Numbered from the whole stretch's first letter, positions 8,977-56,231 are shown. The stretch is DNA of 62,746 nucleotides, filler included, from 6 parts of 6 records of this genome joined end to end with filler, not necessarily neighbours in it, one strand, 5' to 3'. Made by a program: numbers and translations. Notes: generated by a model not told the origin, from the letters alone.

Positions 8977-9429
8977 TTATTCAGCGGCCGCTTCTGCCGG
9001 TTCTTCTTCCCCACAGCAGTGGGCGCAGTTCATGTCGCAGCCGATGATAGGTTCGGGATCTACCCCCTGCCGTTTGTAGTAATCGCCGATCGCCGCTTTG
9101 ATGCCCTCCTCGGCCAGTACCGAACAGTGCATCTTGACGGGCGGAAGTCCGTCAAGCGCCTCGGCAACGGCTTTATTGGTGATCTTGAGCGCATCCTCAA
9201 TCGTCTTCCCTTTTACAAGCTCCGTGGCCATGGAAGATGTGGCGACGGCCGCGCCGCAGCCAAACGTTTTAAATTTAATATCCGTAATAACGTCGTCTTC
9301 GATCTTCATGAATATCTTCATGATATCACCGCATTTCGGATTGCCGACCTGCCCGACGCCGTTGGCATCCGGAAGCTCGCCGACGTTTCGCGGATTATTG
9401 AAATGCTCCATTACTTTATCTGAATACAT
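8977..9429 (-). CDS. iscU: Fe-S cluster scaffold protein IscU/NifU
   Basis: MYSDKVMEHFNNPRNVG, GNPKCGD, FKTFGCGAA, LPPVKMHCS. Start at 9429. Confidence 0.96.
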   Translation of the reverse strand: MYSDKVMEHFNNPRNVGELPDANGVGQVGNPKCGDIMKIFMKIEDDVITDIKFKTFGCGAAVATSSMATELVKGKTIEDALKITNKAVAEALDGLPPVKMHCSVLAEEGIKAAIGDYYKRQGVDPEPIIGCDMNCAHCCGEEEPAEAAAE

Positions 9430-9495
9430 TGGATTGTCCTTTCTGTCTAATCGTATAGTATCGACAGTCGTTAACACAGTGTTAAGCTGCCTTGT

Positions 9496-10665
9496 TTAAA
9501 CCGTTTGCGCCTTTTCCTCCCACAGCGGAGACATATCCCGCAGACGCGATACCACGGCCGGAATCTTTTCGAGCATATAATCAATATCTTCGTCCGTATT
9601 GAGTTCGTTAATGGACAGCCTGAGGGAGCCGTGGGCAATCTCATGCGGCAGGCCAATACTCATCAGCACGTGAGACGGGTCCAGCGAGCCGGTGGAGCAC
9701 GCTGAGCCGGACGACGCGCAGATGCCGTTTTGGTCCAGAAGCAGTACCATCGCCTCACCCTCGATGCACTCAAACACGAAAGATGCCGTGCCGGGCAGCC
9801 TGTTTACCGGGTCGCCCGTCAGCCGTGAACGCGGGAGCTTTAACAGTCCTTCTATCAAGCGGTCACGCATGGCGGTGATTTTTTGCGTATTTTCGGCCAC
9901 ATGGGAAACGGCATCCTCCAGCGCACGTGCCAGGCCCACAATCCCGGCGACGTTTTCCGTCCCGGAGCGTTTACCGCGCTCCTGTCCACCGCCATGAAGA
10001 AGCGCCGGCAACCGAAGGCCTTTTTTAATATACAGCGCGCCGACACCCTTGGGTCCGCCGAATTTATGGCCGGCCAGCGACAGCATATCCACGTTCATCT
10101 CCGCGACATCGATGGGGATGTGGCCAACGGCCTGCACCGCATCCGTGTGAAACAGAACGCCCGCTTCCCTGGCAATAGCGCCAATCTCGGCAATGGGCAT
10201 AATCGTCCCGATCTCATTGTTGGCGGCCATAATCGTGATGAGCACCGTATCGTCGCGGAGGGCCGTGCGCAGCTCGTCCAGCGAGATCCGTCCATATTCA
10301 TTAACCGGGAGGTATGTGACCTCATACCCCTTCTTTTCAAGATGCTCAAGCGTATCAATAACCGCATGATGCTCTATAGCCGAGGTAATGATATGTTTGC
10401 CCTTTTTGCTGCCGATTGTCGCCTGGATCGCCCAGTTGTCGGCTTCCGTGCCGCCGCCGGTAAAAAAGATTTCCTCAAACGCGGCCCCGATGGCCCGAGC
10501 CACCCCGGCGCGGGCAGTTTCAACGGCGCGCTTGGCACTGCGTCCGTACGAATAGATGGACGACGGATTGCCGTACTGCTCCGTCAGATACGGCATCATA
10601 TCTTCCAGCGCGGCTTTCGAAAGCGCCGTTGTCGCGGCGTTATCTGCATAAACAGTTCGTTTCAT
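9496..10665 (-). CDS. iscS: Cysteine desulfurase IscS/NifS
   Basis: [24 protein letters not shown] (PLP Lys), SSGSAC catalytic loop. Confidence 0.96.
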
Positions 10666-10710
10666 AAGCTTACTCCTTTATATATTGAACGCGTGATTGC
10701 GAAAGTTTTT

Positions 10711-10735
10711 ATTACATAGCTTTTCTCTAGGTTAT
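10711..10735 (-). promoter_or_regulatory. Putative Rrf2 (IscR/CymR-type) operator upstream of iscS
   Basis: Minus strand ATAACCTAGAGAAAAGCTATGTAAT shares AT-N2-CCTAG-N8-TATGT with the site at 13724-13748. Confidence 0.5.
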
Positions 10736-10777
10736 GAGTGTATAATGACCCTTATAGCATTACCCGATAACACTCCA

Positions 10778-11215
10778 TTAAATGCTGTAGTTTAACGCGC
10801 CTTTTTCATAATAGCGCTCCGTCAGGTTGAGCAGCGTAATGTTATCGACAATGCTATTAACAGCCTCGTCTATTTTTTTCCATATCTCAACTGTCACGCA
10901 TTGATCGGCGCGTTCGCACTTGTTTTCCTCGTCCTCAATACAACGGACGGGGGCAAGGTCGCCCTCCATCAGGCGCAGGATCATACCCACCGTAAATTCA
11001 GACGGTTCCTTTGACAGCATATATCCGCCCTGCGCGCCCCGGATGCTTTTGACAAAACCGGCGCGGTTTAAAACCGTTATGATTTGCTCGAGATACTTTG
11101 TGGAAATTTCCTGACGCTCGGCGATCTCCTTGAGCGGAATAAATTCGCCGTTATAATGGAGCGCCAGATCAAGCATCAGCCTGAGCGCATAACGTCCCTT
11201 TGTCGATATTTTCAT
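10778..11215 (-). CDS. Rrf2-family regulator (IscR/CymR-like, three Cys ligands)
   Basis: MKISTKGRYALR, YLEQI, SIRGAQGGY, C..C..C motif; lies in the sulfur/Fe-S cluster. Confidence 0.93.
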   Translation of the reverse strand: MKISTKGRYALRLMLDLALHYNGEFIPLKEIAERQEISTKYLEQIITVLNRAGFVKSIRGAQGGYMLSKEPSEFTVGMILRLMEGDLAPVRCIEDEENKCERADQCVTVEIWKKIDEAVNSIVDNITLLNLTERYYEKGALNYSI

Positions 11216-11348
11216 ACCCTCACCCCAAAAGCTTCATTCATCGCAACCATCATAGCATAGCAATCCGAGCGGTACAATATATTTTCAATCTCTTGACGAT
11301 TAATCAGATGAATGCTACAGTATGCCCGTATTTATATTGATGAGCGCT

Positions 11349-12287
11349 CTATGCCTCATCCTTGTACAGTCCTGTTGACAAATACCGTTCGCCCGTATCG
11401 GGAAGCAGTACAACGATCATTTTTCCGGCGTTTTCCGGGCGGCCCGCCAGCTGCATCGCTGCATGAAGCGCCGCGCCCGAGGAAATCCCAACAAGCAGTC
11501 CTTCCGTTTTTGCAGCCGAGCGCGCGGCCTCAAACGCCTCGTCATTCGCGACCGTGATGATCTCATCGTATACAGATGTGTTCAGTGTTTTCGGAACAAA
11601 TCCAGCGCCGATCCCCTGTATTTTGTGCGGCCCCGGCTTCCCGCCGGACAGGACCGGCGAATCAGCCGGCTCTACAGCAACAATCCGAACATTCGGGTTT
11701 TTCTGCCGGAGCACCTCACCGACGCCGGTGATCGTCCCACCCGTCCCGACACCGGCCACAAAGATATCAACCTTACCGTCCGTATCGTTCCAGATCTCAA
11801 GCGCTGTCGTCTTCCGGTGAATATCGGGATTGGCCGGGTTCTCAAATTGCTGCGGCATATAGGCGTTCGGAATGGTCTCGGCCAGCTCGCGCGCTTTTTT
11901 GATGGCGCCGTTCATGCCTTCCGCGCCGGGCGTGAGTACCAGCTCCGCGCCAAGCGCCGATAGTAAATTCCGGCGCTCAATGCTAAAGGTCTCGGGCAGC
12001 GTGATAATAAGCCTGTAGCCTCTAGCCGCCGCAACATACGCCAAGGCAATTCCTGTATTGCCGCTCGTCGGCTCTATGAGGACGGTATCCTTATTAATAA
12101 GTCCTTTTTCCTCGCCGTCCTGTATCATTGCCAAACCGATCCGGTCCTTCACGGACGACAGGGGGTTAAAGCACTCCAGCTTAGCGATAATCCGTGCGCC
12201 GGCATCATTCGCCTGCGCATAACCCGAAAGCTCCATAAGCGGCGTATCGCCGATCAAATCAGTGAGTTTTTCAGCTATATTTGCCAT
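11349..12287 (-). CDS. cysK: Cysteine synthase A
   Basis: [10 protein letters not shown] (PLP Lys), [32 protein letters not shown]. Confidence 0.96.
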
Positions 12288-12303
12288 GTGTATCGTCTCC
12301 TTT

Positions 12304-13596
12304 TCAGTCATCAAACGCCTGGTCCAGGTCTCTTATCAAATCGTCAATATGCTCCGTTCCGATAGACAATCGGATCATGCCGGGTGTAATCCCCGATTCA
12401 AGCAGCTCCGTCTCGTTCAGCTGCGCGTGTGTCGTGCTGGCCGGATGGATGACAAGCGATTTCTGATCGGCCACATTCGCCAGCAGCGAAAACAGCTTGA
12501 GACGGTCAATAAAGGCTTTGGCTCCCTGTGCGCCGCCCTGTATCTCAAACGTAAATATGATACCCGCGCCATGAGGAAAGTATTTTTCGTATAATTTGTG
12601 ATAGGGGCTGTTCTTAAGGGCTGGATGATTGACCTTTTTAACCTTCGGATGCCGGCTTAAATAATCGGCAACCTTTAATGCGTTTTCAACGTGACGCTCC
12701 ACCCTGAGCGACAGCGTTTCTAATCCCTGCAGAAATAAAAACGCGTTAAACGGGCTGAGCGCCGCGCCCGTATCACGCAGGAGCGATACGCGCATTTTTA
12801 CGATGTATGCCGCCGCGCCGCCTGCTTGCGTGTAACTAATGCCGTGATAGCCCGGGGCCGGCTCCGTCATGCACGGGAATTTTCCCGACAGCGCCCAGTC
12901 GAACGTTCCCGCATCGATTACAACGCCGCCGATCGACGTCCCGTGCCCGCCGATGAATTTCGTGGCCGAATGGATCACGATATCCGCGCCGTGTTCAATC
13001 GGCCGCAGCAGGTAGGGCGTTGCAAACGTATTGTCCACGATCAGCGGTATACGCTGGGCATGCGCAGCGCGGGCTGCCGCTTCAATATCGATAATGCTGG
13101 AATTTGGATTGCCGAGGCTCTCAATGAATACGGCCTTCGTGTTAGGCAGGATCGCCCGTTCAAAGCTGTCCGGCTCGTCCGGGTCGACAAAGGTTGTCTC
13201 AATCCCGAAGTCCGGCAGCGTATGCGCAAACAGATTATACGTACCGCCGTAAATGGTCTTTGCCGACACAATGTGATCGCCGGCGTGCACGATATTCTGG
13301 ATCGCATACGCCGCAGCCGCCGCGCCCGACGCAAGCGCCAGTGCTCCTACCCCGCCCTCCAGCGCCGCAATACGTTTTTCGAAGACGTCGGTTGTGGGAT
13401 TCATGATGCGTGTATATATGTTGCCGCCTTCAGACAAGGCAAAGCGCGCTTCTGCCTGGGCACTGTTTTCAAATACGTAAGATGCCGTCTGATAAATTGG
13501 GACGGCCCGCGCACCGGTTGCCGGGTCGGCGTTTTCCTGACCGGCGTGAAGCTGCAGCGTTTCAAAACGATAGATCTGTTCGTTTAAGTCTTTCAT
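12304..13596 (-). CDS. metY: O-acetylhomoserine aminocarboxypropyltransferase (sulfhydrylase)
   Basis: [48 protein letters not shown]. Confidence 0.94.
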
Positions 13597-13874: not shown

Positions 13875-13897
13875 AAAAAGGCGGCTATTGCCGCCTC
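13875..13897 (-). terminator. Intrinsic terminator ending the riboswitch operon
   Basis: Minus strand AGGCGGC-AATA-GCCGCCT followed by a T-tract, about 40 bp after the LOG stop. Confidence 0.7.
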
Positions 13898-13933
13898 AAT
13901 TACCGCTATGTTGTTTAAAACTCTCTGATGTTT

Positions 13934-14887
13934 TTATAAACCTGTTTTACAGACCGGTATAACGTAAATGACGGGTACCTCGTAGGGATGGACCTCCTTA
14001 ACGGCCCGGATTGTTTCGTCGATTTTGTCTGTTCGGCAGAGAACCTCCACCTTAAGCTCATCCGCCGTAGACATGACATTTTCCTTACCGTTATACGGGA
14101 CGCTGCCGGGCAAGGGCCGCCAGCACCCTGTTATTTCCGTGTACGACAGGACTCGGTCATAATTGCCGATATGTCCGGCATCTACATGCCGGAGCGCCTC
14201 CTGCAGAAGCGATAAATGCGTTTTAGGAATGTGGATCTCCATTTTGCAGTATGTCGGCTCGTCCGTACAATCTCCGCCGCTATCACCTTTGTCGGGGATG
14301 TCCCGGTCCACATCGGTCAGCCAGCGCTCGCCGCTCTCCTCGGGGACGTACGCATCAATATGGTCGAGTGCAGCCGATACATCCTCCGTCACAAAAAAAA
14401 GCTCCAGGCAAGCTTCCCGGGCGAAATTTTTACGAACAGTCATTTCAAGCTGTGACAGGAGCGGATTAAAATAACCGTCAACGTTTAATATGACAATCGG
14501 CTTGGCGTGGTAACGCAGCTGTTTAAGCGTGATGATTTCCATAACCTCTTCAATCGTGCCGAAGCCGCCGGGCAGTGCGATAAACGCATCGGAACGATCA
14601 TCCATCACCGCTTTACGCGTGCGCATATCCTCCGTCACAACCAGCTCGTCGCACGATTCGTAGACGATGCCCGTCTCGTTTAAAGCCTCCGGGATAACGC
14701 CTATCACTTTGCCCCCATGCTGATGGACCGAGCGCGCGCATTCGCCCATGAGGCCGGTCAGGCCGCCGCCGTATAGAAACTTGTCGCCCCGACGGGCGAT
14801 TTCGCGTCCAAGCCGCGCCGCCGCATCAAAATAGACACGGTCAATCGTATTGCTGGACGAGCTGAAAACGCAGATAACCTTGTTCAT
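13934..14887 (-). CDS. LOG-family (TIGR00730-like) nucleotide phosphoribohydrolase fused to a C-terminal YqfO/NIF3 PII/CutA-like domain
   Basis: ICVFSSS, YGGGLTGLMG, MRTRK, LPGGFGTIEE; C-terminal AGHIGNYD...WRPLPGSVPYNG...VHPYEVP. Confidence 0.88.
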   Translation of the reverse strand: MNKVICVFSSSSNTIDRVYFDAAARLGREIARRGDKFLYGGGLTGLMGECARSVHQHGGKVIGVIPEALNETGIVYESCDELVVTEDMRTRKAVMDDRSDAFIALPGGFGTIEEVMEIITLKQLRYHAKPIVILNVDGYFNPLLSQLEMTVRKNFAREACLELFFVTEDVSAALDHIDAYVPEESGERWLTDVDRDIPDKGDSGGDCTDEPTYCKMEIHIPKTHLSLLQEALRHVDAGHIGNYDRVLSYTEITGCWRPLPGSVPYNGKENVMSTADELKVEVLCRTDKIDETIRAVKEVHPYEVPVIYVIPVCKTGL

Positions 14888-14911
14888 ATTTGCAAACTCC
14901 CGAAAAGGATT

Positions 14912-15769
14912 TTAAGAGATTTTTTCATTCCGCCGGAGCTGGCCGCAGCCGCCCTGGATTTCACCGCCGAAATTGCGGAAAATGTCGCACTCGGCCTTAT
15001 CTTTTATTTTATTACAAAAATCCAAAACTTCAAGCCGGTCCGGCGCCTTAAGTCCGTTAATATGGTTATCGTTATAGCCGGATAAAACAAGCTTCATGTT
15101 GTTGCCATCCATAAGCCGCAGCAGCTGCTCACGATCCTCCGGCGTGTCGTTATAGCCTTTTATAAGCATATATCGCAGCCGGACCCGGGACCCCGTAATA
15201 TCGGCATAGTATTTCCCGGCGTCCAAAATTTCATTAACACCGTACGTTGTCGTCATCGGGATCAAATGGGACCTTTTCTCATCATTTGGCGCGTGGAGCG
15301 ATAAATTCAGCCGTACATTGACGCCGATTTTCGCGGCGTCTTCAGCCAGCTTGCGAATGGCCGGCGCGATGCCGACGGTGGCCAGCTCAAATTGCCGAAG
15401 ACCCAGGCGGCTTTTAACCAGTCCCATCGCTGTGATAACATTGTCGTAATTTAAGAGCGGCTCGCCCATACCGGCAAAAACCACGGCGTCAAGGGGTAAG
15501 TATCCGCCCTGCCGGCTGTTGCGGTCGCAGATACGGATCTGTTCAAAAATCTCTTCCGCGCTGAGATTGCGGATAAAGCCCCCCTCGCCGGTAGCGCAAA
15601 AGCGGCATTTCATGGCGCAGCCGGCCTGCGACGATACGCACACGGTGCTGTGATACGTCAGCTGCCGTTCCCGGTCACACATATAGAGCGTTTCAATCGT
15701 GTTGCCGTCATTGAGACCGAAGAGGTATTTAACGGCATCCTCGGTTTTAAGCTGTTTTAAAACGATCAT
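14912..15769 (-). CDS. RlmN/Cfr-like (class A) radical SAM methyltransferase lacking the N-terminal domain
   Basis: CVSSQAGCAMKCRFCATG, RNLSAEEI, AGMGEPLLNYDNV, SLHA, GGCGQL; only 285 aa; GGAGGG RBS. Confidence 0.88.
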   Translation of the reverse strand: MIVLKQLKTEDAVKYLFGLNDGNTIETLYMCDRERQLTYHSTVCVSSQAGCAMKCRFCATGEGGFIRNLSAEEIFEQIRICDRNSRQGGYLPLDAVVFAGMGEPLLNYDNVITAMGLVKSRLGLRQFELATVGIAPAIRKLAEDAAKIGVNVRLNLSLHAPNDEKRSHLIPMTTTYGVNEILDAGKYYADITGSRVRLRYMLIKGYNDTPEDREQLLRLMDGNNMKLVLSGYNDNHINGLKAPDRLEVLDFCNKIKDKAECDIFRNFGGEIQGGCGQLRRNEKIS

Positions 15770-15798
15770 ATTACCCTCCGCGTTCGGTATGGGCTCAG

Positions 15799-15838
15799 AA
15801 AAAACAAAAAACCCTCAAAGCGCACTGCGCTTTGAGGA
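15799..15838 (-). terminator. Riboswitch expression-platform terminator
   Basis: Minus strand CCTCAAAGCGCA-G-TGCGCTTTGAGG followed by a long T-rich tract, 30 nt before the start codon. Confidence 0.85.
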
Positions 15839-15890
15839 TTTTACCATTGTCCTCTTAACCTTATCCTCATACCGGAATAAGAATTTAAAC

Positions 15891-16043
15891 AAATCAGGCA
15901 GGTCTCCTGGCTAACGGATCACAGCGCGTCCCCGCCTTCCCGGCTTAACCAGTGGCGTGTGGGAACGGCTCCCCGGATACAGTGGCGGGACCGCTCGGTT
16001 ATTTATCCGATTCCCTATTCTCCCCTTGCGGGGCACCTGACTT
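15891..16043 (-). ncRNA. Cobalamin (B12) riboswitch
   Basis: Minus strand reads AGGTGCC...AATAGGGAATCGG...CCGAGCGGTCCCGCCACTGT...GCCACTGG...CCGGGAAGGC...AGCCAGGAGACCTGCC (B12 box); P1 is AAGTCAGG/CCTGATTT. Confidence 0.95.
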
Positions 16044-16062
16044 GCAGTATTAAGCTAAAAAA

Positions 16063-16091
16063 AATGTACCACATCGGTCGCCAATTTGCAA
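16063..16091 (-). promoter_or_regulatory. Promoter of the riboswitch transcript
   Basis: Minus strand TTGCAA, 17 bp, TG-extended TACATT, about 20 nt upstream of the aptamer. Confidence 0.6.
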
Positions 16092-16126: not shown

Positions 16127-16996
16127 CTAAAACAGGCTCAGCTGCTCGCCGGTCCGCTTGTCCTCAAATTGCCGGATATAACGAAACACCTCATCCGTGT
16201 TATAAAGGCTGCCGTTTGCACGGCACGCGTCTCGGAAAATGGTCATCAGCCGCTCGTTTTCGGGGCTCAGGCACGAATAGCTGTTGCCGAAGGTTTCAAT
16301 ATACCGGTCCTTCAGGCCGGGAAAGAGCGCGTCCAGCTTGTTATAAAAATACTCACGGTCCCCCTCGCGCAGTGTTACACCCATATTAAAGCATATAATG
16401 CCCCGGACCTCCGCTTCAAAGCAGTAATCTAGAATACCGAGAAGGTTCTCCTTTGTATCGTTTATAAACGGTAGGATCGGGCACAGCCACACTACCGTTG
16501 GGATGCCCGCGTCACGAAGCGCTAAAAGGGTTTCAAAGCGTTGGCGCGTCGTGCTGACATTCGGCTCCAACACGCGGCATAAGTCTTCGTCGTAGGTCGT
16601 CAGCGTCATTTGCACAACACATTTTGTATGATCGTTGATGCTTTTAAGCAAATCAAGATCCCGCAGAACGCGCGCTGATTTCGTGATGAGCGAAAACCCG
16701 AAGCCATACCGGTCGGCAAGCTCCAGGCACCGGCGCGTCAGGCACTCTGTTTCCTCAAGCGGTAAATACGGGTCACACATGGAACCGGTCATAATCATGC
16801 AGCGCTGCCGCTTGCGCCGCAGCGCGTCCTCTAAAAGCGCCGGCGCGTTAACCTTGACCTCTACGTCCTCAAAGTCATGCGTCATATTGTAACAGATGCT
16901 GCGGGAATCGCAGTAAATGCAGCCGTGGGTACAGCCGCGGTACAGGTTCATGCCGTTATTCGGTGAGAGGATGCTTTTAGCGTTCTTATAATGCAT
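16127..16996 (-). CDS. Radical SAM protein, SPL/Rv2578c-like (putative DNA repair)
   Basis: MNLYRGCTHGCIYCDSRS, GSMCDPY, ITKS, PILPFIND. Start at 16996. Confidence 0.88.
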   Translation of the reverse strand: MHYKNAKSILSPNNGMNLYRGCTHGCIYCDSRSICYNMTHDFEDVEVKVNAPALLEDALRRKRQRCMIMTGSMCDPYLPLEETECLTRRCLELADRYGFGFSLITKSARVLRDLDLLKSINDHTKCVVQMTLTTYDEDLCRVLEPNVSTTRQRFETLLALRDAGIPTVVWLCPILPFINDTKENLLGILDYCFEAEVRGIICFNMGVTLREGDREYFYNKLDALFPGLKDRYIETFGNSYSCLSPENERLMTIFRDACRANGSLYNTDEVFRYIRQFEDKRTGEQLSLF

Positions 16997-17065
16997 AGAT
17001 GCGCTCCTTCCCACCGTCGGCGTAATCTGAAACAACGAGAACACTTCCGGTACGTACCAAAGGTC

Positions 17066-17647
17066 TTATGTATCCTTTTTGGCCTTTTTATTTTTATGGC
17101 TTTGCATTATCTCATCTAAATGGTCAACCACGAAGCGCTTAGCCTCTGAGTTATAAAAAACAGCCTTATACGCGCCGCGCTGGCCCGTTCTCATCTCATC
17201 GGACAGCCCGATTTTATGGCCCAGCGGCGTCGGCTGTCTGTTTTTCCGCCCGTCCTCAAACTCAGCCTGTTCCAGAAAGCCTTTTTCGAGAAGCCAGTCC
17301 GTTACAACCGTCGCCGTCAGCTTTTTCATCTGACTGACATCGATACAGCTGTTGAGCTGCTCGACGAAATGGCTAATCTGCAGGGGTTCATCTGAGAATT
17401 TCAAACTGCTGCGACAGTCCGGAGATAGCTCAAAATCCGCTTTGGCCGATGGCCTCAGCGGCTTGACGGAACCGCCGTTGTCAATCACCTGCCTCAATAT
17501 GTCGGAGACATAGAAAAAACACCGGGACAAACGCACATTGTTGAGCGCACTGTCCTCAGGAATTTCCGTATCGGCCAAGGGGTCAACGCCGGCAGCCAGC
17601 TTATCCATATACATTTTAGCGCGCTGAAGCTTTTCCAGCTCTGTCAT
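17066..17647 (-). CDS. Conserved hypothetical protein
   Basis: 193-aa ORF with GGAGG RBS; no recognisable catalytic motif. Confidence 0.75.
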   Translation of the reverse strand: MTELEKLQRAKMYMDKLAAGVDPLADTEIPEDSALNNVRLSRCFFYVSDILRQVIDNGGSVKPLRPSAKADFELSPDCRSSLKFSDEPLQISHFVEQLNSCIDVSQMKKLTATVVTDWLLEKGFLEQAEFEDGRKNRQPTPLGHKIGLSDEMRTGQRGAYKAVFYNSEAKRFVVDHLDEIMQSHKNKKAKKDT

Positions 17648-18917: not shown

Positions 18918-19017
18918 NNNNNNNNNNNNNNNNNNNNNNNNNNNNNNNNNNNNNNNNNNNNTTAATTAATTAANNNNNNNNNNNNNNNNNNNNNNNNNNN
19001 NNNNNNNNNNNNNNNNN
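18918..19017. other. Artificial contig linker
   Basis: N-run + TTAATTAATTAA (stops in all six frames) + N-run, 100 bp. Confidence 0.99.
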
Positions 19018-24570: not shown

Positions 24571-24670
24571 NNNNNNNNNNNNNNNNNNNNNNNNNNNNNN
24601 NNNNNNNNNNNNNNTTAATTAATTAANNNNNNNNNNNNNNNNNNNNNNNNNNNNNNNNNNNNNNNNNNNN
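24571..24670. other. Artificial contig linker
   Basis: N-run + TTAATTAATTAA + N-run. Confidence 0.99.
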
Positions 24671-36022: not shown

Positions 36023-36122
36023 NNNNNNNNNNNNNNNNNNNNNNNNNNNNNNNNNNNNNNNNNNNNTTAATTAATTAANNNNNNNNNNNNNNNNNNNNNN
36101 NNNNNNNNNNNNNNNNNNNNNN
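36023..36122. other. Artificial contig linker
   Basis: N-run + TTAATTAATTAA + N-run. Confidence 0.99.
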
Positions 36123-46378: not shown

Positions 46379-46478
46379 NNNNNNNNNNNNNNNNNNNNNN
46401 NNNNNNNNNNNNNNNNNNNNNNTTAATTAATTAANNNNNNNNNNNNNNNNNNNNNNNNNNNNNNNNNNNNNNNNNNNN
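46379..46478. other. Artificial contig linker
   Basis: N-run + TTAATTAATTAA + N-run. Confidence 0.99.
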
Positions 46479-56131: not shown

Positions 56132-56231
56132 NNNNNNNNNNNNNNNNNNNNNNNNNNNNNNNNNNNNNNNNNNNNTTAATTAATTAANNNNNNNNNNNNN
56201 NNNNNNNNNNNNNNNNNNNNNNNNNNNNNNN
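56132..56231. other. Artificial contig linker
   Basis: N-run + TTAATTAATTAA + N-run. Confidence 0.99.

Follow-up and report, generated by a model that had tools for sequence, protein, structure and literature searches.

A Cobalamin riboswitch operon encoding a short RlmN-like radical SAM protein and a LOG-family protein: a strong candidate for the synthesis of a purine lower ligand of cobamides

RlmN, the C2-methyltransferase of A2503 in 23S rRNA and of A37 in tRNA, and Cfr, which acts on C8, are radical S-adenosylmethionine (SAM) methyl synthases whose mechanism employs one cysteine to carry the methyl group and a second, resolving cysteine. LOG-family proteins (TIGR00730) comprise the cytokinin-activating LOG and, as a distant relative, PpnN of Escherichia coli. 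The bza operon is a small lower-ligand gene set of anaerobes that relies on radical SAM chemistry, feeds CobT with a benzimidazole and is controlled by a riboswitch. Its enzyme BzaF is described as ThiC-like in the available excerpt of PMC7617358. Here we describe an operon found in a stretch of DNA of 62,746 nucleotides (the window), in which a Cobalamin riboswitch is followed by a gene for a short RlmN-like radical SAM protein and a gene for a LOG-family protein. The short protein belongs to a new conserved cobamide-regulated RlmN-like subfamily that is often paired with LOG, and we regard the operon as a strong candidate for the synthesis of a purine lower ligand.

The short enzyme is like RlmN (TIGR00048; structures 3rfa and 5hr7) and Cfr in its fold, its CxxxCxxC motif and two further cysteines. 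It differs from RlmN in the absence of the N-terminal domain PF21016 (RlmN_N), a near-neutral charge, its presence as an extra copy, its control by a Cobalamin riboswitch and sequence motifs of its own. The LOG protein exceeds the cut-offs of its family and contains both of the characteristic motifs; in contrast to the cytokinin LOG it falls below the equivalog model NF058542, is fused to a PII/CutA-like domain and lies in a B12 riboswitch operon. That additional domain shares a double beta-alpha-beta arrangement with the insert domain of NIF3 proteins (Bacillus cereus 2gx8 and Staphylococcus aureus SA1388, 2nyd), but here it is fused to LOG and not inserted in a NIF3 protein. The likeness to bza lies in a small set of genes of anaerobes that, as proposed here, would use radical SAM chemistry to supply CobT and would be repressed by cobamide; the enzyme, however, is RlmN-like and not ThiC-like, the proposed product is a purine and not a benzimidazole, and the genes are usually not located beside cobT.

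The operon lies on the minus strand of the window, to which all its coordinates refer (Table 1). The riboswitch was identified by a covariance-model match to Rfam family RF00174 with 112.7 bits (gathering threshold 31.5, E 1.9e-27). The match extends over model positions 1-189 of 189, i.e. the aptamer is full-length and not truncated, and it is the sole Rfam match across the whole window. An initial annotation of this DNA had placed the aptamer at 15891-16043, and the match confirmed it with slightly wider limits. A terminator follows 38 nt 3' of the aptamer: its 16-bp stem (15842-15808, seven G-C pairs) is succeeded by a T run, folds with -23.4 kcal/mol (z -7.28) and was not equalled by any of 200 shuffled sequences, in agreement with the regulatory terminator previously proposed at 15799-15838. 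The 5' arm of the terminator could pair, by complementarity, with a heptamer upstream of this stem, which is therefore a candidate antiterminator. The order of radical SAM gene, 24-nt gap and LOG gene proved correct by both open reading frames and family matches. The terminator proposed at the end of the operon is supported by folding (-17.9 kcal/mol, z -3.48; 1 of 200 shuffles equally good), although it is missing from the list of the consensus terminator scan. The weakest part of the observation is the promoter: the proposed sequence is visible at the position given, but just 8 of its 12 positions conform to the consensus, and it does not appear in the output of a consensus scan that requires 9.

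The short enzyme forms a separate RlmN-like clade. The protein of 285 amino acids (aa) matched the radical SAM family PF04055 at 65.3 bits, and its best NCBIfam model was TIGR00048 (RlmN) at 214.3 bits, under the cut-off of 290. The alignment to TIGR00048 was limited to model positions 73-347, the first ~70 residues, corresponding to RlmN_N, being absent. Models of Cfr scored 141-153 bits against cut-offs of 468-550. The clade was defined by a search of 5.8 billion proteins (clusters P0001-P0094), in which ~94 clusters of ~285 aa were found at 213-569 bits and 47-88% identity, none of them containing PF21016. Beyond these there was a sharp fall to true RlmN proteins of 340-360 aa, with at most 194 bits and at most 43% identity, and PF21016 was present in nearly all RlmN matches from P0095 onward. 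A quick maximum-likelihood search on 74 rows separated all 29 short sequences from the rest by a branch supported by an SH-aLRT value of 99, the stem being 1.5 changes per column long. Hallmarks of the clade are the motifs SxYNDN and FHNFG and, ahead of the first cysteine, 4-5 inserted residues (LTYHS).

None of 40 clade members compared departs from the three cysteines of the CxxxCxxC [4Fe-4S]/SAM motif (C51, C55 and C58), nor from C44 (in TVCVSSQ) and C275 (in GGCGQL). All five align with cysteines of three RlmN sequences, and we take C44 and C275 to correspond to the resolving C118 and the methyl-carrying C355 of E. coli RlmN. An AlphaFold2 model of the protein had a mean confidence (pLDDT) of 90.5. 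Foldseek matched this model to 6fz6, a radical SAM methyltransferase of Sphaerobacter (E 6e-28, TMq 0.89), to E. coli RlmN (3rfa and 5hr7, TMq 0.87) and to Cfr (9p0p, TMq 0.72). Because the cysteines and the fold are retained, the short enzyme probably methylates an aromatic sp2 carbon by the methyl-synthase chemistry of RlmN.

Related loci were collected in three ways. A pattern scan with one genome per species gave 43 loci, and 20 of these (L001-L019 and L028) belong to the clade, with identities of at least 48%. Among their sources are Sporobacter, further Oscillospiraceae-like metagenome-assembled genomes (MAGs), Clostridium malenominatum, C. peptidivorans, C. tanneri and C. pascui. A sample of 301 genomes from the family of G001, the closest relative (90% identity), contained one further carrier, G224, so that the clade is present in 4 of the 301. 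A metagenome scan contributed 10 clade loci. One of these duplicates L009, leaving nine distinct loci and, with the 21 genome loci, a total of 30; L100 and L101, as well as L105 and L106, are near-copies, and the metagenome counts are not fully independent.

The riboswitch is conserved in most of the genome loci. RF00174 was found directly upstream of the gene in 18 of the 20 loci and also in G224, i.e. in 19 of 21, which bears out the link between homologues and B12 riboswitches that had been put forward for this operon. Among the nine distinct metagenome loci, an nhmmer profile made from the 20 aptamers already identified located a riboswitch in three. It is absent from four, including L108 with its sub-threshold match (see below). 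The remaining two are L102, whose upstream sequence is too short for a decision, and L104, where hemB directly precedes the gene.

Four genomic contexts can be distinguished. In Oscillospiraceae-like loci, to which the operon of the window belongs, the riboswitch is followed by the radical SAM gene and by LOG, which may or may not carry the PII domain. In Clostridium-like loci there is a riboswitch and the radical SAM gene alone, with unrelated neighbours. Sporomusaceae-like loci have the radical SAM-LOG pair without a clear riboswitch, and in L104 the radical SAM gene lies within a corrin operon. The first, second and fourth contexts link the enzyme to cobamide; the first and third link it to LOG. 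The Sporomusaceae-like leaders (L100 3280-3495, L101 3281-3495, L103 700-942 and L108 3250-3500) have in common a promoter-like box, TTGACT, and a terminator made up of a G+C-rich stem-loop and a run of T, with no Rfam family assigned; they may represent a degenerate or a different control element. In a Papillibacter-like MAG (L028 6935-7840; G020:C2:71600-72453) the short radical SAM gene is in two pieces, with a 199-aa open reading frame and matches to model positions 67-186 and 208-351, while the riboswitch and LOG are intact. Either a frameshift in a pseudogene or faulty assembly would account for this split.

Kinship with RlmN raises the possibility that the short enzyme is still an RNA methyltransferase, producing 2-methyladenosine (m2A) or 8-methyladenosine (m8A) in tRNA or rRNA under cobamide limitation, with LOG as an unrelated neighbour. 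RlmN and Cfr are indeed its nearest families in both sequence and fold, both mechanistic cysteines are kept, and some clade members are annotated at source as 23S rRNA (adenine2503-C2)-methyltransferase. However, the protein does not reach the cut-off of TIGR00048, it has no RlmN_N domain, and a full-length RlmN is also encoded in all 20 carrier genomes (393-452 bits; 19 above the cut-off and the 20th cut by a contig end). It is also markedly less basic: the mean isoelectric point of the short enzymes is 7.1 and their mean charge -0.1, compared with 8.7 and +5.5 for the RlmN proteins of the same 19 genomes, and in 16 of the 19 pairs (counted by hand) the isoelectric point of the short enzyme is lower than that of its RlmN. 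RNA methylation, moreover, offers no rationale for the riboswitch, the linkage to LOG or the cbi-operon context. The loss of the N-terminal domain, the neutral charge, the coexistence with a true RlmN and the riboswitch suggest that RNA is no longer the substrate. We therefore consider an RNA methylase very improbable, and a cobamide-linked function other than rRNA or tRNA methylation highly likely. Sporobacter termitidis (G017) has in addition a third, very divergent RlmN/Cfr-like paralogue (G017:C29:29695-30705; 258 bits to TIGR00048, branch length 2.6).

The second gene encodes a protein of two parts. Its LOG domain matched TIGR00730 with 183.1 bits (cut-off 96.35, residues 3-180) and PF03641 with 134.8 bits (cut-off 27, residues 47-176). 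The translation contains GGGLTGLMG and PGGFGTIEE, in agreement with GGGxxGxMG and PGGxGTxxE, which we take to be the catalytic motifs of LOG. The cytokinin equivalog NF058542 was not reached (140.4 bits, cut-off 300). From these matches the domain is expected to convert a nucleoside 5'-monophosphate to a free base and ribose 5-phosphate. The C-terminal ~100 aa, a feature absent from the initial annotation, matched CutA1 (PF03091) at 24.3 bits with a cut-off of 22.4. A profile of nine orthologues of this domain found residues 161-260 of the NIF3-related 2gx8 (E 3.7e-18) and S. aureus SA1388, 2nyd (E 6.8e-14), with weaker matches to CutA and PII, and an AlphaFold2 model (pLDDT 77) contained the beta-alpha-beta unit twice. 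Fusion of LOG to a PII/CutA-like domain was seen in ~31 protein clusters.

LOG is the next gene in 12 of the 21 genome loci and in seven of the nine metagenome loci, i.e. in 19 of 30; the PII-like fusion is present in 11 of these 19 and absent from eight. In G001 and G017 the LOG of the operon is the only one at E <= 1e-10. Among the ~94 radical SAM clusters, 24 share the size of the longest contig with a LOG cluster, by a hand count in which equal size serves as a rough proxy for a common contig; 18 of the 24 are on contigs of 51 kb or less, and a Pelosinus genome is included. No fusion of the radical SAM and LOG proteins was found among proteins of 500-2000 aa. Three matches from this search (E <= 1e-40) were rejected since their identity of 38-42% is under the 47% floor of the short clade. 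The position of LOG as a translationally close downstream partner suggests that a nucleoside 5'-monophosphate is the intermediate and that the base is released from it.

Genes for the attachment of a lower ligand accompany the clade. CobS and CobT are each present in all of the first 20 carriers. In the 301-genome family sample the background of CobS is 130, and all four clade carriers of that sample are CobS-positive. CbiD was found in 15 of 21 carriers; some carriers may only salvage corrinoids, because a complete genome, G003, is without CbiD. The ThiC family is represented by no copy in 11 of 20 genomes and by one copy in nine. In three of these nine (G001, G006 and G008) ThiC is on the same contig as cobT at a distance of more than 200 kb, and in the remaining six ThiC and cobT lie on separate contigs. 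Given this number and distance, no bza-type ThiC paralogue beside cobT was seen in the 20 carrier genomes. Each of the 20 encodes one CobT and no second, and therefore no ArsAB-type pair is present. Since the carriers are able to attach a lower ligand and no known lower-ligand pathway was seen in them, they are predicted to be makers of purinyl cobamides.

In G001, G002, G008 and G017 cobT is itself located behind a Cobalamin riboswitch, one of 7-20 in these genomes (20 matches in G017), and lower-ligand activation thus belongs to the same regulon. Reading by eye of the plus-strand rows for G008 and G001 placed lipoprotein-type binding proteins and a CbiM-like protein behind other such riboswitches; no conclusion is drawn from this. 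In G001 cobT and cobS are ~31-33 kb from the short radical SAM gene. There, three larE/larB/larC-like genes (by eye; L174 519-3324, minus strand) come after an operon of cobT, cobU, cobS, a cobC-like and a cobA-like gene. Direct linkage of the short radical SAM gene to cob or hem genes was observed in one locus out of 30 and not within the window. This is the metagenome locus L104, with the order hemB, short radical SAM gene, hemL, cbiX, cbiA, cobQ. The neighbourhood expected from the earlier proposal was recovered for LOG in 19 of 30 loci and for cob or hem genes in L104.

These observations could be explained by the following scheme. The two genes would form an operon repressed by cobamide. 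Its first product would be a radical SAM methyl synthase of class A (RlmN/Cfr-type) whose RNA-binding N-terminal domain was lost and whose substrate is a small adenine compound, not rRNA or tRNA. It would methylate a carbon of an adenine nucleotide such as adenosine monophosphate (AMP) by means of the methyl-carrying and the resolving cysteine. The LOG domain would then cleave the N-glycosidic bond to give the methylated base and ribose 5-phosphate. If C2 is attacked, as in RlmN, the base would be 2-methyladenine. CobT, CobU and CobS, encoded elsewhere, would take this base as the lower ligand, with [2-MeAde]cobamide (factor A) as the product. When cobamide is plentiful, the fold of the riboswitch would let the leader terminator form and the operon would be off. 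We give the complete route, from AMP through 2-methyl-AMP to 2-methyladenine and its use by CobT, a little less than an even chance of being correct.

A number of observations weigh against this scheme. The initial annotation had arrived at the same pathway, and its interpretation stands in part: the riboswitch, the extra paralogue, cobS and cobT, and the linkage to LOG are in its favour, but LOG is not universal and some loci have no switch. Neither L009 nor L012 has a Cobalamin riboswitch even at E <= 0.01, although their leaders still finish in terminator-like hairpins. No Rfam riboswitch was found for the Sporomusaceae-like L100, L101 and L103, in which the radical SAM-LOG pair is present, and the Cobalamin match of L108 reaches only 29.6 bits, is sub-threshold and overlaps the start codon. 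The carriers are phylogenetically clustered, and the 20 out of 20 for cobS and cobT overstates their independence. The identity of the products as 2-methyl-AMP and 2-methyladenine is a prediction, and sequence cannot decide between C2 and C8. LOG is not adjacent in 11 of the 30 loci. Three genomes (G009, G014 and G015) have LOG homologues of 62-66% identity elsewhere, without a Cobalamin riboswitch, and in six Clostridium-type carriers (G008, G010, G011, G012, G016 and G019) no LOG was found at E <= 1e-10. Base release by LOG is therefore not a universal step, and in the latter carriers a LOG-independent route must exist.

Such a route would be available if methylation took place after activation or attachment of the base. 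The substrate of the short enzyme would then be either the product of CobT, alpha-adenine ribotide, or finished pseudocobalamin, and LOG would merely supply adenine from AMP; the end product would be the same. This order of events suits the Clostridium-type gene, which follows its riboswitch as a single gene and whose neighbours vary, the position of the L104 gene within a corrin operon, and the presence of CobT and CobS in all first carriers. It does not suit the tight and repeated linkage of the radical SAM gene to LOG, with a gap of only 24 nt here, which is more simply understood as consecutive steps, nor the Sporomusaceae-like pair without a riboswitch. In addition, the site of RlmN takes a beta-nucleotide in RNA, and a substrate of the size of a cobamide would need a much more open site. 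We consider such late methylation distinctly unlikely, and retain methylation of a free nucleotide followed by base release as the preferred route.

Further points against that route concern cobamide itself. Family searches and reading by eye located no cob gene on the 18.9-kb contig that carries the operon. A convergent gene for a ~195-aa histidine phosphatase (His_Phos_1) is found just downstream of LOG in ten loci (eight genome loci, L098 and L105), but not in the window. Its identification as cobC was rejected, as it scored 88-94 bits with TIGR03162, its best NCBIfam match (cut-off 162.9). Each of G002-G006 has a better cobC-like gene (104-111 bits) within ~1 kb of cobS, and the neighbour of LOG is only 26% identical to the operonic cobC-like copy of G001; it was regarded as a different paralogue and dropped as cobamide evidence. 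To our knowledge, E. coli has only an ordinary RlmN. It is reported to make [2-MeAde]Cba from cobinamide in the available part of PMC8123684; factor A thus needs no dedicated pathway and can arise without the clade, in E. coli presumably from RNA-derived m2A. Clostridium cochlearium, a producer of factor A to judge by the title of a paper, is not among the named members of the clade; this is a weak argument, as only about a quarter of the proteins are named.

Genes controlled by Cobalamin riboswitches are not confined to cobamide synthesis: the metE and nrd isozymes under such control are B12-independent back-ups. The logic of the riboswitch suits isozymes as well as biosynthesis genes, and by analogy the short enzyme, a class A methylase with no need of cobalamin, could have a B12-linked function other than lower-ligand synthesis: under cobamide scarcity it might stand in for a cobalamin-dependent radical SAM methylase (class B) as a back-up, or its product might be a modified purine that serves some other purpose. 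The Sporomusaceae-like pair without a clear riboswitch and the absence of a cob gene beside the operon in the window are in line with this explanation. So is the case of Pelosinus, which weighs against the ligand pathway too: by protein name this organism carries both the radical SAM and the LOG proteins, yet it is tabulated as providing [Phe]cobamide in the part of PMC11321594 available, and such a phenolyl cobamide suggests that the product of the pair need not be the main lower ligand. On the other hand, no candidate for the B12-dependent counterpart was identified, and an isozyme would be expected also in organisms that use cobamide without making it, yet cobS and cobT accompany the clade in every first carrier while the background of cobS is below one half. 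L104, furthermore, puts the gene inside a corrin biosynthesis operon. A back-up function appears unlikely to us on this evidence, and synthesis of a purine lower ligand remains the preferred reading.

The window consists of six contigs joined by five spacers of the form N44-TTAATTAATTAA-N44. Their G+C content is, in order, 0.52, 0.35, 0.31, 0.31, 0.54 and 0.30 (0.30-0.54 overall), and because of these differences more than one organism is probably represented. The operon is on the first contig (1-18917, G+C 0.517), and the remaining five are unconnected with the finding. Directly upstream of the riboswitch there is a second radical SAM gene (16127-17044, minus strand) of the PA0069/Rv2578c type, with 152.8 bits against a cut-off of 360. 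It is preceded by a gene for a 193-aa protein without a Pfam family (17066-17647, minus strand), and L001, the closest relative, has both genes beside its operon as well. Beyond the terminator, on the downstream side of the operon, there is a run of sulfur-metabolism genes (8977-13596, minus strand), with the same genes in L001. An O-acetylhomoserine sulfhydrylase-type pyridoxal phosphate enzyme and a cysteine synthase-type PALP enzyme of this run were checked against families; a Rrf2-type regulator, a cysteine desulfurase and an IscU-like protein were recognized by eye only.

Table 1. Coordinates of the operon features and of the spacers in the window, and of example His_Phos_1 genes in other loci
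Feature	Position	Strand	Remarks
Promoter-like site TTGCAA-17 nt-TACATT (weak)	16063..16091	-	8/12 consensus positions
Cobalamin riboswitch aptamer (RF00174)	15880..16055	-	covariance-model match
Candidate antiterminator strand UGAGGAU	15863..15869	-	pairs with AUCCUCA 15833-15839, terminator 5' arm
Leader (regulatory) intrinsic terminator, 16-bp stem + T run	15798..15842	-	
Short RlmN-like radical SAM gene, 285 aa	14912..15769	-	open reading frame; ribosome-binding site GGAGGG 15774-15779, ATG start
Intergenic gap, 24 nt	14888..14911	-	contains ribosome-binding site GGGAG 14897-14901
LOG open reading frame, 317 aa	13934..14887	-	
LOG phosphoribohydrolase domain (TIGR00730 / PF03641)	14333..14887	-	residues ~1-185 of 317
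PII/CutA-like domain (NIF3-insert type), LOG C-terminus	13934..14275	-	residues ~205-317
Operon-end intrinsic terminator GGCGGC-AATA-GCCGCC + T5	13875..13897	-	
Spacers	18918-19017, 24571-24670, 36023-36122, 46379-46478, 56132-56231		join six contigs
His_Phos_1 examples	L002 8866-9456, L004 6155-6736, L013 9620-10213, L098 2856-3437, L105 2974-3567	-	

The lower ligand of a cobamide decides which microbes can use it. Benzimidazole and phenolic ligands have known genes; for purine ligands, prediction from genomes at present fails. [2-MeAde]cobamide is a recurrent natural corrinoid, and Allen and Stabler reportedly found it in 2008 to be abundant in human faeces. According to the available text of Shelton et al., a lower ligand could be assigned for 58% of the predicted producers, and the remainder may make purinyl cobamides. 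Our literature search, in which subscription papers and supplements were not covered, found no paper that links an RlmN-like or LOG gene to cobamide or describes the biosynthesis of 2-methyladenine. We suggest, tentatively and with rather less than even confidence, that the operon represents the first pathway dedicated to a purine-type ligand and, in its radical SAM enzyme, the first methyl synthase of the RlmN/Cfr type to act on a free nucleotide in place of RNA. The clade is rare, as the 4 carriers among 301 genomes of its own family sample indicate, and it therefore cannot explain all natural factor A. The idea is directly testable, because several of the carriers are cultured type strains. 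Cultured carriers include Sporobacter termitidis DSM 10068, Clostridium malenominatum JCM 1405, C. pascui DSM 10365, C. peptidivorans and C. tanneri. If it is true, the short enzyme would be the first marker gene for producers of purinyl cobamides (factor A), class A radical SAM methyl synthases would be extended from RNA to small molecules, and LOG-family enzymes would gain a role in cofactor biosynthesis.

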